A stretch of 64,000 nucleotides of DNA from Fimbriimonas ginsengisoli Gsoil 348 (GTDB lineage Bacteria; Armatimonadota; Fimbriimonadia; Fimbriimonadales; Fimbriimonadaceae), in assembly GCA_945881865.1 (NCBI GenBank), contig CAMCVK010000012.1:1498-65497 (forward strand). Reading direction: 5' to 3'. Positions 1 through 4,359 of the stretch are shown in pieces; the stretch's first letter is position 1, and every line of letters begins with the position of its first letter. Position numbers and translations under genes: made by a program. The notes beneath the pieces were generated by a model. It was not told the DNA's origin, ran no database searches, and saw nothing but the letters and a program-made list of their open reading frames with translations.

Positions 1-185
1 AACTCCGCAGTTTGTCGATCCTCATCCTTCCGACGGATTATTCGATAAGCAAGCCAACAAACCCGGAACAGTATGACAAGAATGCAAAGATTTGTAGTAA
101 AGTTCCATTCTTTACCTTGTACCATGAGCTTGACGATCGGCAGACTAAGGGCGACCAGAGCACAGACCCAGAGGCACAGTTTCAA
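1..185 (-). CDS. Small two-TM membrane protein, putative immunity protein (runs off window start; absent from ORF track)
   Basis: Manual translation from TTG at 185, one nt after the RHS stop at 187: MKLCLWVCALVALSLPIVKLMVQGKEWNFTTNLCILVILFRVCWLAYRIIRRKDEDRQTAE, open to position 1. Two hydrophobic helices followed by a basic tail. Confidence 0.6.
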   Translation of the reverse strand, partial: MKLCLWVCALVALSLPIVKLMVQGKEWNFTTNLCILVILFRVCWLAYRIIRRKDEDRQTAE

Positions 186-186
186 C

Positions 187-954
187 TTAATGGACAAGTA
201 ACTGGCCCGCCTTATCTAGAATTTGCTCGGCCTCCGGCCCCTCCGTGTCCATATTAACGATCATCATTAATAGCACTATTTGAGATATAGCGCATAATAC
301 CATAATAGAGGTTATGCCAACGCCTAATGCTAAATACGCGTAGTTCATGCCTAATTGTCGGGGATCGCATGCAATGCCGGCTTGAATCGCAAGTTGAGCA
401 TTGGATATTCCTACCAAAACAGAGTTCAGAAGCTGCTTCACAATTTTGTCCACCGGATCTTGCGGCTCCCAAAATGCCTCCACCATTCCGGCAAGGGCGA
501 GCAGTGCAACAACTCCTAAGTTGAGGGCAAATTTGCCTGTTTCATCTACATTACCAACCGGCTTATTGTGGCAATAAATAAACCAGTTGTTCCCATCCAT
601 CGCACTATCCTCATTGATAAACCTTCCGACGCTCGGTTCGGAGTACCTAGCCCGCATGTAGATCATCGCGGATTCGTCGTCGGTCTTGTGCCCAAGGTTG
701 GCGCAGTAGCGGCCGGTTGGTTCGGTGTAGATGATCCCAAGCCGCAGGTTCCCCCACGGGTCATAGCTCCGCCGGTTCGAGACGTTGTATCCCGAGCCAG
801 ACTTGCTTAACGTCGCCACCATGTTGCCGTGTCCATCATACACCGGATACCAGACGTCACCGTTGGTGGACCCAATATCCACCCCACGCGCCCCAAGGCC
901 GTAGTTTGTGATGTTGAGGACGCCCGGCTTCACCTCGACGTCCTGCATGCCCAT
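187..954 (-). CDS. Orphan RHS core plus hydrophobic C-terminal putative toxin domain (cassette 3)
   Basis: RHS-associated core motifs YDGHGN, YDPWG, YMRARY.EPSVGRFI.ED, NW..Y..N.PV..VDETGK. The C-terminal 115 aa (187-534) are hydrophobic and AT-richer. Confidence 0.85.
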   Translation of the reverse strand: MGMQDVEVKPGVLNITNYGLGARGVDIGSTNGDVWYPVYDGHGNMVATLSKSGSGYNVSNRRSYDPWGNLRLGIIYTEPTGRYCANLGHKTDDESAMIYMRARYSEPSVGRFINEDSAMDGNNWFIYCHNKPVGNVDETGKFALNLGVVALLALAGMVEAFWEPQDPVDKIVKQLLNSVLVGISNAQLAIQAGIACDPRQLGMNYAYLALGVGITSIMVLCAISQIVLLMMIVNMDTEGPEAEQILDKAGQLLVH

Positions 955-984
955 CTGCCCGTCGTAGCAGGTATGGCTTTAAAA

Positions 985-1158
985 TCATTCTCTCCCGACC
1001 AGGATGTAGATCAGCGCGAAGATCGCTACTCCGAGCACAATCCCGGCCAAGGGAAAAACGGCCCGAAACTCTGGTGAACGATTCGGCGATCTCAAGAGTA
1101 AGGCGAAGGCGACGAGACCACCCACTAGTCCCGCAACGGCCGCCATCGTAAGAATCAC
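985..1158 (-). CDS. Small two-TM membrane protein, putative immunity protein
   Basis: GTG at 1158 overlaps the TGA of the upstream RHS cassette (GTGA). VILTMAAVAGLVGGLVAFALLL and VFPLAGIVLGVAIFALIYILV are two TM helices. Confidence 0.65.
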   Translation of the reverse strand: MILTMAAVAGLVGGLVAFALLLRSPNRSPEFRAVFPLAGIVLGVAIFALIYILVGRE

Positions 1159-1808
1159 GATCCAACCATCTCTATTTCGATCAGGCAAACCACGATGATG
1201 CCGAGTTGAAGGCCAAAGAGGAACGAAATTGAGGCAACGATTCCTAAGCGGGGTGCGAGCTTTGCCAAGCCTATTCCGCTACCCCAGACCGGCCCACATC
1301 GCGCCAAAATGGCAAAGAGGGTTGCAGCACCACCGCCGGCAAATGCCATGGTTAACGCAGTTTGTTGACTAGGATTAAAACTTGGGTCATACTTCTGCAT
1401 TTCAGCTACCGCATACTCGAATCCTGCCAACACGCCGCCCAACGCTCCAAGGAAGGCGGAGGCCACGACGCCCCACCATGCTAATACGCCGGCGATCACG
1501 GCTTTACCCGTGTAGTCGATATTCAAGCACGGGTCGTTGCCACCGTAGACATACCAGTTATATCCGTCTCGCGCCGGGTCCTCGCTGATGAACCGGCCGA
1601 CGCTGGGTTCGTAATACCTCGCGCCCATGTAGATCATCGCGGATTCGTCGTCGGTTTTGTGGCCTAGGTTGGCGCAGTAGCGGCCGGTCGGTTCGGTGTA
1701 GATGCTCCCAAGCCGCAAGTTGCCCCACGGATCATAGCTCCGCCGGCTCGAAACGTTGTATCCCGATCCAGACTTGCTTAACGTCGCCACCATGTCGCCG
1801 TGTCCATC
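1155..1808 (-). pseudogene. Orphan RHS core fragment plus glycine-zipper hydrophobic C-terminal domain (cassette 2)
   Basis: Homology to the other cores begins abruptly at DGHGDMVATL (~1808). The core ends at IDYTGK. The CT (1155-1505) is Gly/Ala-rich and hydrophobic. The ORF extension upstream to 1931 is non-homologous. Confidence 0.8.
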
Positions 1809-1887
1809 ATCCTTGCGGAAATGGGTGGCGGCCAACAGATATTCGGGCCACAGGAGCAGCTTCGACGAATCTGTCATCAATCTGACT

Positions 1888-2319
1888 TCAAGGTTGATGG
1901 CCATTGGCCAAATATTGAAGAATGCCCGCACACGTGCTGGACTGCATCAATGGGAGAAGCTTCTTGGCATCCGAGCTGGTTTCCGATGAAATCGAATGCC
2001 ATCGCGTCGCAGCGTCTTGATCGTACAAGGTCTGTAGCTTCAGCCTAACCCCGTCGCGTTCATCACTGGACGCATAGAATTCTGCCGGATCCAGCCAGCA
2101 TCGAAGGAGCAAAGAAAGCTGCTCTAGTTGGCGACTAGTTAGCGTTTGGATCCCTTCTAGCAAAGCCACATTAGCCGCTAGCCACATTCGAAACGCAAGG
2201 CGCTCTTCGCGTGAAAGCCTTAGCCGCCAGGAAATGAACTGTAGCCGAGTGCACCGACTGGTTGCCGACCACATGGCGCGAAGCAAAAGGATCGGTATTA
2301 GTAGAATCTTCGTGATCAT
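1888..2319 (-). CDS. Hypothetical protein, putative immunity protein of RHS cassette 1
   Basis: ATG overlaps the RHS stop (TAATG at 2317-2321). Hydrophobic N-terminus MITKILLIPILLL. No recognisable family. Confidence 0.45.
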   Translation of the reverse strand: MITKILLIPILLLRAMWSATSRCTRLQFISWRLRLSREERLAFRMWLAANVALLEGIQTLTSRQLEQLSLLLRCWLDPAEFYASSDERDGVRLKLQTLYDQDAATRWHSISSETSSDAKKLLPLMQSSTCAGILQYLANGHQP

Positions 2320-3464
2320 TAGAGAAAGTCATTCAAGATAACGTACAGAGCGATCTGTAGGAAGCCGGCATACGCTTCATAGAAGCCTTTCACATTTTGT
2401 GCAATGCCACCAGAGGGCGCTGAACCGGCAAGTGCGAAGTACCCCGAAAGCATCCCGTTCGATGCGAGGAAGCCGGCTGTCGGCAAGCTCCCGTTCATGC
2501 CCATGCCCGTAGCACCAAGCCATGCAACAATGCCCACAAGAAATGGCGCGATAAGTCGGGCCATTGTAGAATTCATTAGGCCAGATTCCCACATTCTCAG
2601 TCCGTCGAAAAGAAGGGCTTCGGCTACCTTCCCGCTCTGATCTACGCAGAGGACTGGGGCGTTATCGACGTAAGTCATCCAATTAGTGCCATCCCGCGCT
2701 GGATCCTCACTAATGAACCTTCCGACGCTGGGTTCGTAGTATCGGGCGCGCATATAGATCATCGCGGATTCGTCGTCCGTCTTATGGCCAAGGTTGGCGC
2801 AGTAGCGGCCGTTTGGTTCGGTGTAGATGCTGCCGAGCCGCAGGTTCCCCCACGGGTCATAGCTACGCCGGTTCGAGACGTTGTATCCCGAGCCAGACTT
2901 GCTTAACGTCGCCACCATGTTGCCGTGTCCATCATACACCGGATACCAGACGTCCCCGTTCGTAGACCCAATATCCACCCCACGCGCCCCAAGGCCGTAG
3001 TTGGTGATGTTGAGAACCCCCGGCTTCACCTCGACGTCCTGCATGCCCATCTGCCCGTCATAGCGGTAGTAGTTGTGCGTGCTGGCCTTCGCCTTGTGCG
3101 TCCGCATCCCGTCAGCCCGGTAGTCGTACGTGGTCACCGTGTTGGTGTAGTACTTGTAGCTGAGCATGCGGTTGAGGCAGTCCCAGGTCGTCGTCGCTTC
3201 TCTTCCGTTGCTATAGGTCCGCGTAAGGCGGTTGCCCAAGATGTCGTTGGTGTAGTTGGTCGTGCTCATCGCGGTCAACCGGTTCAGGTTGTCCACCGCT
3301 GTCGCATCGTTGCGGTTCCCCGCCGCATCGTAGGACCATGTTTTGGATGCGCCCGCGAGACCATCGGTGGTCGAGAAGGACGTTAGATAGTTCCGCTCGG
3401 CCTCGTAGCCGTAAGTTTCCGTCCAGTCGGTTGCGAACTGCGTGGGAGCCGACTCATTCTTCAC
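2319..3464 (-). CDS. N-terminally truncated RHS/YD-repeat protein with hydrophobic C-terminal domain (cassette 1)
   Basis: YD repeats (WSYDAAGNR, YTNDILGNR, TWDCLNRM, YDYRADGMR, YRYDGQ) precede a core ending in VDQSGK and a 103-aa CT. Probable start is GTG 3464. The upstream part of the 486-aa ORF overlaps vapC and is not RHS-like. Confidence 0.85.
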   Translation of the reverse strand: MKNESAPTQFATDWTETYGYEAERNYLTSFSTTDGLAGASKTWSYDAAGNRNDATAVDNLNRLTAMSTTNYTNDILGNRLTRTYSNGREATTTWDCLNRMLSYKYYTNTVTTYDYRADGMRTHKAKASTHNYYRYDGQMGMQDVEVKPGVLNITNYGLGARGVDIGSTNGDVWYPVYDGHGNMVATLSKSGSGYNVSNRRSYDPWGNLRLGSIYTEPNGRYCANLGHKTDDESAMIYMRARYYEPSVGRFISEDPARDGTNWMTYVDNAPVLCVDQSGKVAEALLFDGLRMWESGLMNSTMARLIAPFLVGIVAWLGATGMGMNGSLPTAGFLASNGMLSGYFALAGSAPSGGIAQNVKGFYEAYAGFLQIALYVILNDFL

Positions 3465-3607
3465 GTAAAAGGTCGAGCTCGCACAATGGCTGGGGATCAG
3501 ACGCCTGCAGGAGGAGGGCAAGCAGAGCTTGCCCGGTGAAAAGCGGCGGCAGAGCCGCTCGCACTCCAAAAACGGAACCGTAGGCGCCCGGTTTTCATAA
3601 CCGGCAC

Positions 3608-4009
3608 TTATGCAACCGGCCAGAGACGGACCGGAAGAAGCTTCGCGTATCGCGAGAAGTCCTCGTCCGTTGTCAGGATCGGGATGTCGTGCCGGCTGGC
3701 GACCGCACAAATCAGGAAATCCGTCGGGCCACCTTGGATCCCGGATGCTCGGCACAGGTTCGAAAATTCGGCGGCGCACTCAAAGTCTTCGGGAGCAAGC
3801 CCAAGGTCGGGGAAGGCGCGGAGAATCCGAACCAGGGCGTCGAACTGCTCGCGAGAGCGGATGCCGGTGAGGATCTCCTGCCGAATCGGTCCGATGATCG
3901 CCGCCGAACCGGCCGAAACGAGCTCCGAAACCGCCGGCGCCGTACGACTGTCGGGAGATCGGCGTCGGAGAAGTGCCGACCAGGCCGAAGTGTCGACGAG
4001 TACGGTCAC
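3608..4009 (-). CDS. vapC: PIN-domain ribonuclease toxin, VapC family
   Basis: VLVDTSAWS N-terminus, QEIL, D.LI.A.A, LTTDEDF acidic PIN motifs. 133 aa, overlapping the antitoxin stop. Confidence 0.9.
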   Translation of the reverse strand: MTVLVDTSAWSALLRRRSPDSRTAPAVSELVSAGSAAIIGPIRQEILTGIRSREQFDALVRILRAFPDLGLAPEDFECAAEFSNLCRASGIQGGPTDFLICAVASRHDIPILTTDEDFSRYAKLLPVRLWPVA

Positions 4010-4206
4010 CTCGTTTGGCGCGCCGCCTTATAGTCGTAGGCCGGATCGTAATCAATCGTGCCCGCGAGGCCCAAAATTTCGAGTTGCTGATGCCGCCGAA
4101 CGTACTCCGACAGCGCAAGGTTCACCGCCTCTCGCTTCGTACCCAAGCCCGAGATGGAGAGCACCTGCGCCACGAGCGCATCATCCAGCTTTAAGTTCGA
4201 CGCCAT
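4006..4206 (-). CDS. vapB: Type II antitoxin, VapB (ribbon-helix-helix, DUF2191-like)
   Basis: 66 aa with SNLKLDDALV...TKREAVNLALSEYVRR...IDYDPAYDYKAAR. ATGA overlap with vapC. Confidence 0.85.
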   Translation of the reverse strand: MASNLKLDDALVAQVLSISGLGTKREAVNLALSEYVRRHQQLEILGLAGTIDYDPAYDYKAARQTR

Positions 4207-4223
4207 GTGTCAAGTGTGACACA
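4206..4223. promoter_or_regulatory. Palindrome abutting vapB start, candidate TA operator
   Basis: TGTGTCA-AGTG-TGACACA inverted repeat. RHH antitoxins usually autorepress through such sites (inference). Confidence 0.45.
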
Positions 4224-4359
4224 CGCGAACCGCGGAACCCTGGGACCCAATTTTTTCAGCAGTCCCACCGGGGTGCAACCCGCAGAAACCGGCCACGTAT
4301 GGAAGTCGTGGGATCGCGGGGCCGCTATACTTGCGGTAACGGATTCCAGGAAACGAAAG

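Follow-up and report, generated by a model that had tools for sequence, protein, structure and literature searches.

Why would a bacterial genome in which no complete rhs gene is found retain, apparently under selection, an rhs gene whose 5' end is missing? The question is raised by the first 3,464 positions of a 64,000-nucleotide stretch of a Fimbriimonas genome (the window; positions 1498-65497 of contig C12 in genome G000, "own" in what follows, which comprises 3.23 Mb in 26 contigs, has 60% GC and is 98.2% complete). Orphan Rhs modules that lie downstream of a full-length rhs gene and are captured by recombination are established (bioRxiv 10.1101/2025.05.08.652813; PMC5727410), and N-terminally truncated Rhs proteins of 350-799 residues have been classed as "Rhs toxin pseudogenes" that are assumed to be untranscribed and decaying (bioRxiv 10.1101/2025.05.08.652813). 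A precedent for another fate exists in Snodgrassella alvi, in which many orphan Rhs modules are transcribed and toxic (Steele et al., 2017; PMC5727410). For the locus described here, we think it reasonably likely that it represents what is left, at the 3' end, of an Rhs polymorphic-toxin locus of the Fimbriimonadaceae type, now an array of headless cassettes whose first gene is under selection.

The first gene of the array (gene 1; 2319-3464, minus strand, 381 residues from a GTG at 3464) comprises a stub of YD repeats (3464-2934), an Rhs-associated core (2933-2628) that ends in VDQSGK at 2628, and a hydrophobic C-terminal tip of 102 residues (CT1, 2627-2322). Its core matches the TIGR03696 model (Rhs_assc_core, cut-off 32.5 bits) at 57.4 bits over 2631-2861. 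The extent of the truncation can be read from two complete proteins: the last ~370 residues of a 1,374-residue Rhs with a signal peptide, encoded at locus L011 of a related metagenome-assembled genome, align with gene 1 from its residue 9, and gene 1 aligns to residues 912-1152 of the solved 1,402-residue RhsP (PDB 8h8b). Gene 1 retains about the last 28% of a ~1,400-residue Fimbriimonadaceae Rhs and has lost about 72% of the 5' end, in agreement with an earlier inspection of the letters alone (the sequence-only reading), which had described a headless first gene without most of the YD shell or any delivery domain. A signal peptide, a DUF6531 head and most of the YD cocoon went with the missing part. 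What remains is a hydrophilic N-terminus, VKNESAPTQFATD, with no signal peptide, PAAR, DUF6531 or similar delivery region, and only ~170 residues of YD repeats in place of a large cocoon; the two cassettes that follow have none. In the AlphaFold model of gene 1 (mean predicted local distance difference test score, pLDDT, of 67), residues 10-200 form a confident beta-hairpin stub and the tip contains three long helices. The best Foldseek matches of this model are Rhs cocoons (Tse15, RhsP, RhsA and teneurins), at target-normalised template-modelling scores of 0.13-0.18. A longer frame, reaching to 3779, was considered as the start of gene 1 and rejected, as it overlaps the neighbouring vapC gene and the upstream DNA is entirely different in the related loci L028 and L058.

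Four close relatives of the headless gene came from a protein search (72-98% identity over the aligned part) and a fifth from a metagenome scan, which brings the sampled loci to a small set of six including our own, all of them from metagenome assemblies. In all five relatives the homology to the window begins at the same GAGCTC at ~3481, 16 nucleotides before the start codon, and the truncation is therefore old and shared. All six copies are headless, and the start of gene 1 is the same in L027, L028, L109 and L110. Two relatives have an intact gene 1 with a different tip: L027, where the headless gene and cassettes lie between vapBC and rpsG as in our genome, and L028, whose upstream synteny is also ours (Band7, a gene of 367 residues and GFO_IDH) save that AraC and DUF4440 genes replace vapBC. 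L058 and L109 likewise have the AraC flank and L110 the vapBC flank. Among proteins in the short length range, all five matches at least 89% identical to the head are headless. Among long proteins (687-2,186 residues) of a database of 5.8 billion, searched with a query that was given the length of a full Rhs while its words and scoring came from the window's head alone, the best of 2,595 matches was only 56% identical.

The head has changed mainly at silent positions. Across five alleles 60 of 441 sites vary, 50 of these at third codon positions; the pairwise proportion of synonymous differences (pS) is 0.20-0.33 and that of non-synonymous differences (pN) 0.006-0.018. In the 177 codons compared between our copy and that of L028, 30 changes are synonymous and four are not (binomial p = 1.5e-15). 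For codons 1-134, a part that the genome contains only once, the ratio of non-synonymous to synonymous rates (dN/dS) is 0.020 against L027 and 0.033 against L028, and the flanking genes give 0.028-0.058. The cleanest comparison is with L110, in which pS is 0.221 for the head, 0.214 for vapC, 0.202 for vapB and 0.233 for Band7, while pN/pS is 0.040, 0.11, 0.10 and 0.015, respectively; such uniform synonymous divergence is expected if the locus was already truncated when it diverged vertically together with its neighbours. From these substitution patterns we consider, with good confidence, that the truncated protein is itself under purifying selection, and the match in synonymous divergence between head and flanks leads us to infer that this selection would have acted in situ. 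Import from functional donors was weighed as a cause of the low dN/dS: it is possible for the comparison with L027 and unneeded for those with L110 and L028, where pS of the head equals that of the adjacent genes. Because relatives with the same start are intact and dN/dS of the head is 0.02-0.05, gene 1 behaves as a stand-alone selected gene.

Several observations weigh against this reading. Neither a recognisable promoter nor a Shine-Dalgarno sequence is found ahead of the GTG at 3464. The core plug (residues 220-280) is poorly predicted, with pLDDT of 38-49, and a stub of 280 residues is unable to close into the cocoon on which known Rhs toxins depend. Damage is seen in three of the five related copies: in L058 the start codon has changed from GTG to GTA, in L109 the head is fused to a DUF559 gene after "NMVA" and the cassettes are deleted, and L110 carries a frameshift (G5 to G4) that is possibly an assembly error; the gene is therefore dispensable in some lineages. 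In principle, full-length alleles that escaped sampling could also supply selected sequence to the population by recombination, and L027, as described below, shows such imports.

These points bear most on the alternative of a decaying relic that persists solely as an immunity island, in which the toxin reading frames are non-functional and the small immunity genes protect against the tips of neighbours. The missing delivery domain, the three damaged copies, the decayed core remnants on contigs C19 and C23, and the cores without DUF6531 in about a third of the genomes of the genus all fit such a relic, and orphan immunity islands are well known (PMC5361080; bioRxiv 10.1101/2025.05.03.651265). 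Gene 1 does not, however, evolve as a pseudogene should: dN/dS of codons 1-147 is 0.02-0.07 among the five alleles rather than neutral, and the frame is free of stops and frameshifts in our genome, L027 and L028, yet three alleles are damaged. Purifying selection on the head matches that on housekeeping neighbours in strength, at equal synonymous divergence, translational coupling to an immunity gene selects only against stops and frameshifts and not against amino-acid changes, and the tip of the third cassette also has a dN/dS of 0.12. We regard the relic as unlikely.

The array behind gene 1 consists of two further cassettes on the same strand. Cassette 2 (1155-1931) has core homology from 1808 to 1503, identified by TIGR03696 (59.0 bits, 1506-1736) and by alignment and ending in IDYTGK; the 41 codons ahead of 1808 do not derive from Rhs. 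Cassette 3 (187-954, from an ATG at 954) has a core that runs to 532, matches TIGR03696 at 49.9 bits (535-765) and ends in VDETGK. A 300-nucleotide direct repeat in three copies marks the cores. Their 5' extents are nested, since in alignments the homology of cassette 3 to gene 1 begins at 966 (equivalent to position 3062 in gene 1) and that of cassette 2 at 1808, and similarity between the cassettes collapses past the DxxGK end of the core. There the tips begin: CT2 (1502-1158, minus strand) has 115 residues in three hydrophobic segments, and CT3 (531-190, minus strand) has 114 and is likewise hydrophobic. Each tip is followed by a small open reading frame (ORF) on the same strand that overlaps the stop codon before it. 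Immunity candidate 1 (1888-2319) encodes 143 residues with an N-terminal hydrophobic helix, its ATG overlapping the stop of gene 1 in TAATG; candidate 2 (985-1158) encodes 57 residues with two transmembrane helices from a GTG at 1158, within a GTGA (1158-1155) that overlaps the stop of cassette 2; and candidate 3 (1-197) encodes 82 residues with three hydrophobic segments, its TTG at 197 overlapping the stop of cassette 3 (187-189). The sequence-only reading had placed three same-strand cores of different 5' extent, each with a distinct tip and a coupled small ORF, at these positions, and the layout held throughout.

The DxxG|K-type end that had been pointed out in all three cores is a variant of the DPxGL-type cleavage motif and is also present in full-length relatives; across 63 relatives D254, D275 and G278 are invariant and D230/D231 nearly so. 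Differences between the cores are mostly synonymous, as had been remarked, with dN/dS of 0.05-0.09 over the conserved 192 nucleotides and 0.10-0.16 over the whole 306, and the 129 nucleotides upstream of the core that gene 1 and cassette 3 have in common carry seven synonymous changes and no non-synonymous one.

Exchange of cassettes through the conserved sequence, an established property of Rhs loci, could be seen directly in L027. Our copy and that of L027 are near-identical from 4381 to 3358 (one mismatch) and from ~1606 to position -790 (six mismatches, two of them outside the rhs genes). Between these flanks a 1.7-kb tract corresponding to ~3357-1650 of the window is replaced in L027, with crossovers in the head (~3357) and in the core of cassette 2 (~1650). 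Within the tract the head is ~92% identical, nearly all changes being synonymous, and the core then diverges; in place of tip 1 and immunity ORF 1, L027 has a hydrophobic tip of unrelated sequence and a 110-residue membrane protein with three hydrophobic segments. L027 documents a cassette swap that took place naturally, through conserved Rhs sequence, in a headless locus. In L028 the array is reordered, and gene 1 has yet another, soluble-looking tip with an immunity candidate of 120 residues. A homologue of CT3 occupies the same position there at 59% identity (the dN/dS of 0.12 given above), and immunity ORF 3 has co-diverged with it (53% identity, dN/dS 0.27). As a separate observation, four of the six differences between our copy and L027 in the 2.4-kb right-hand flank fall in cassette 3 (window positions 276, 373, 554 and 562), and each of the four changes an amino acid (K131N, G134D, I194M and V227M), though so few differences do not allow a test.

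Such exchange is what one would expect of a silent library of tip-immunity cassettes for an expressed full-length rhs, either elsewhere in the genome, as the sequence-only reading had proposed, or, in a weaker form, in other strains reached by DNA transfer. The cassette architecture and core homology on which this explanation builds are real, exchange through the core is seen between strains, and full-length Rhs genes followed by short cassettes occur in other species of the genus. A search of the whole genome, however, returned no recipient. The genome holds ten TIGR03696 cores: the three on C12, an array of five on C10 and single cores on C9 and C11. The open frames that contain them reach at most 486 residues. 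The YD-repeat models TIGR01643 and PF05593 match only in short heads on C9, C10 and C12, and DUF6531, which marks the heads of full-length relatives and is present in 29 of 45 other genomes of the genus, is absent from ours. A tblastn search of the genome with the 1,374-residue Rhs of L011 matched residues 979-1320 only, with nothing for residues 1-978. The array does not, then, lie downstream of a full-length rhs with a common core in the same genome, and because the genome is without one, the array is no in-cell reservoir for a master gene. The weaker form fares little better: no long database protein exceeds 56% identity to the head, so that there is no known recipient with enough homology, all six sampled copies are headless, and silent sequence would not hold codons 1-134, which are shared with no other copy, at a dN/dS of 0.02-0.03. 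The sequence-only reading had itself named two findings that would speak against a library, the lack of any other rhs core in the genome and short proteins with the same start kept intact and expressed in relatives; the first did not hold, as ten cores exist, and of the second, intact proteins were found in L027 and L028. A donor library is improbable in our judgement. More remote still is an assembly artefact in which a full-length rhs was lost or collapsed: the assembly is metagenome-derived and in 26 contigs, repeated cores can break assemblies and the contig ends 1.1 kb away from the array, but the head junction is internal to the contig, the same locus stands on an independent 541-kb contig, the truncation boundary is common to four other samples, and a 4-kb shell would be largely unique sequence, yet no such YD or DUF6531 signal appears on any contig.

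The remaining cores of the genome are of the same short kind. C10:68040-74813 is a headless array of five cassettes in which a YD head of ~120 residues is severed from the first core by a frameshift; C9:3622-4932 and C11:13950-14957 are single short core-tip genes with DSDGL and DPDGL ends and, in both cases, a small ORF behind the gene; and C19:17600-22100 and C23:8600-10500 contain decayed core remnants (for example VYDGHGNMVATLSGSGWGYSISNRR..., with the frame lost) beside small membrane ORFs and numerous copies of the palindromic repeat. Sixteen of the 45 other genomes of the genus are also without DUF6531, and several of these retain cores (G012, G035, G008, G017 and G046); G012 has eight cores at 99% completeness in four contigs. 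Headless-only genomes may be common in the genus. Where rhs is full-length, at L011 and L026, it is preceded by genes for a secreted protein of ~460-520 residues and a protein of ~325-345 residues with a C39-peptidase-like C-terminal domain (L011 2668-5033; L026 985-3467), which are possible export or processing partners of the full-length Rhs. No homologue of either gene was found in our genome.

If gene 1 is selected as a truncated gene, what might it do? The tips are strongly hydrophobic (grand average of hydropathy, GRAVY, 0.77-1.10, the maximum being that of CT2), and by hydropathy and AlphaFold they have a Gly/Ala-rich, helical character in common. Pairwise BLAST showed no significant similarity among the tips save a weak match between CT1 and the tip of L011 (E = 7e-6 without composition correction). 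Searches of the tips and immunity ORFs against Pfam, NCBIfam and PADLOC gave nothing above cut-off, only sub-threshold hints of LPD39, a holin-like family and ABZJ_00895; immunity candidate 1 had no family match above cut-off and candidate 2 weak sub-threshold hints only. Among 1.8 billion representatives CT1 matched itself and one protein of 206 residues (38% identity), and in the 5.8-billion-protein database CT3 matched itself and the L028 copy only, and these matches gave no function that could be carried over to either tip. Unrelated tips, overlapping small ORFs, co-replacement in L027 and co-divergence in L028 form the sequence pattern expected of toxins with cognate immunity. Judging from these features, the likeliest mechanism would be action of the tips on a membrane, with neutralisation within the membrane.

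Put together, the reading we favour would run as follows. Gene 1 would be translated; its core would probably still cleave after DxxG and release a small, membrane-active helical tip, and the coupled small membrane proteins would neutralise their cognate tips. At the minimum, the array would be a source of immunity against the Rhs tips of neighbours. Behind gene 1 stand the two more deeply truncated core-tip-immunity cassettes and a core stub, which is interrupted by a palindromic repeat and a DUF559 remnant, and the modules turn over by homologous recombination within conserved head and core sequence. A further step, which we put forward only tentatively, is that the headless mini-Rhs is a functional stand-alone module, its YD stub and autoproteolytic core serving as a self-cleaving carrier of membrane-active helical peptides of ~100 residues, free of both a cocoon and any known secretion head. 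As part of the same tentative proposal, it could serve as a weapon of the bacteriocin type that is set free by some other route, or it could work inside the cell as an addiction or abortive-infection module restrained by the coupled membrane immunity protein. If true, this would give a reason for the selective retention of such genes in lineages without any full-length Rhs.

The array ends shortly beyond the window. That it would continue past position 1 had been suspected, and extension to the left bore this out: immunity ORF 3 runs on for 48 nucleotides and ends at C12:1449, and a fourth core stub follows (C12:1139-1453, reading ...VDVKPGVLNVTNYGLGARGVDVGSTNGDVWYPVYDGHGNMVA), 91-93% identical to the other copies over 126 nucleotides and disrupted after "NMVA", where a palindromic repeat and a decayed DUF559 gene intervene. 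The array extends only ~360 nucleotides past position 1; beyond the DUF559 remnant lie rpsG (C12:132-605) and the contig end. The independent 541-kb contig, from another assembly, encodes a gene 1 protein identical to ours, with the neighbouring genes in the same order, and has the same end beside rpsG-rpsL. Interruption of the core at the same codon (...YDGHGNMVA|MSP...) by a palindromic repeat of ~45 nucleotides followed by a DUF559 (PF04480) endonuclease-like gene was seen at C12:606-1453 (L012), L028 11404-11988 and L109 1363-2400, the gene being intact in L028 and L109 and decayed on C12. A 75%-identical copy of the unit adjoins the core remnants at C23:8642-9201, and the unit may be mobile or may have spread via core recombination. 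At L111 (14354-15234) the array lies directly downstream of rpsL-rpsG, where fusA-tuf is usual, and the str operon appears interrupted at this place.

On the upstream side, the junction region (3465-3607), which contains the truncation boundary, separates gene 1 from vapC (3608-4009, minus strand; PF01850, PIN, 1.2e-15) and the overlapping vapB (4006-4206, minus strand; PF09957, VapB_antitoxin, 6.2e-16). With a PIN toxin behind VapB in overlapping genes, this is a VapBC type II toxin-antitoxin pair, a neighbour outside the Rhs system; it stands where the head of rhs would be expected, and sister lineages carry AraC and DUF4440 there. Relative to L028, vapBC and the adjoining repeat element (3482-4235) are exactly exchanged for AraC and DUF4440 (L028 8242-9768), both ends being shared to the nucleotide and the right end of the swapped segment coinciding with the rhs truncation boundary, which suggests a recombination-prone junction. 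The element, a 55-nucleotide dispersed repeat resembling repetitive extragenic palindromic (REP) sequences (3517-3571; GGCAAGCAGAGCTTGCC...GAAAAGCGGCGGCAGAGCCGC.CGCACTCCAAA), has ~25 dispersed copies in the genome, often as tandem pairs. In other genomes of the genus its 31-nucleotide hairpin core is conserved at 94-97% and likewise lies beside short rhs cassettes (G014, G035 and G049); a role of this conserved element as an rhs-specific regulatory or att site was considered and discarded, given its REP-like nature and number of genomic copies. A terminator scan placed a terminator-like hairpin after vapC (3576-3593), and overall the promoter and terminator scans gave counts at or below shuffled expectation.

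N-terminally truncated Rhs genes are routinely dismissed as pseudogenes or silent spare parts. If our reading is upheld, headless Rhs genes can have a selected function of their own, be it immunity expression, a cocoon-independent toxin or another, and surveys that discard them miss part of the polymorphic-toxin repertoire.

Among known systems, the closest in layout are the orphan rhs arrays of enterobacteria, formed by C-terminal displacement (Jackson et al., 2009; Koskiniemi et al., 2014; both cited in PMC5727410). They share with our locus same-strand truncated cores, tips with immunity genes and recombination through the core, and they differ in that their cassettes stand behind a full-length secreted rhs able to capture them, whereas here the first gene is headless and no full-length rhs, PAAR/VgrG-type head or DUF6531 is present. 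The arrays of S. alvi are alike in their long runs of truncated Rhs genes, some of which escape silencing, in purifying selection on core and toxin domains and in a diversity that arises by recombination over mutation (PMC5727410); they begin with a complete Rhs linked to a type VI secretion system, whereas the selection seen here is on a truncated gene without a complete partner. By length (381 residues) and architecture gene 1 belongs to the class of "Rhs toxin pseudogenes", from which it is set apart by a dN/dS of 0.02-0.05 and by a start that several lineages have kept. Orphan immunity arrays of Vibrio cholerae (PMC5361080) and gut Bacteroidales (bioRxiv 10.1101/2025.05.03.651265) similarly keep immunity genes without a deliverable effector, accumulated by successive displacement; they usually keep only effector stubs, whereas here complete core-tip ORFs are intact. 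The full-length Rhs proteins of Fimbriimonadaceae (~1,370-1,430 residues; L011 5067-9191 and L026 3419-7693) are 45-56% identical to gene 1 over the last ~280 residues of shell and core and have the same DxxGK end and similar short tips (that of L011 being mildly hydrophobic), followed by core remnants; they have in addition a signal peptide, DUF6531 and a full YD shell, none of which occurs in our genome. The present locus stands apart in that no complete Rhs is present at all and in the selection that, judging from codon substitutions, can be demonstrated on the part found only in the truncated gene; it also extends Rhs cassette dynamics to Armatimonadota and adds several families of small hydrophobic tips with almost no relatives.

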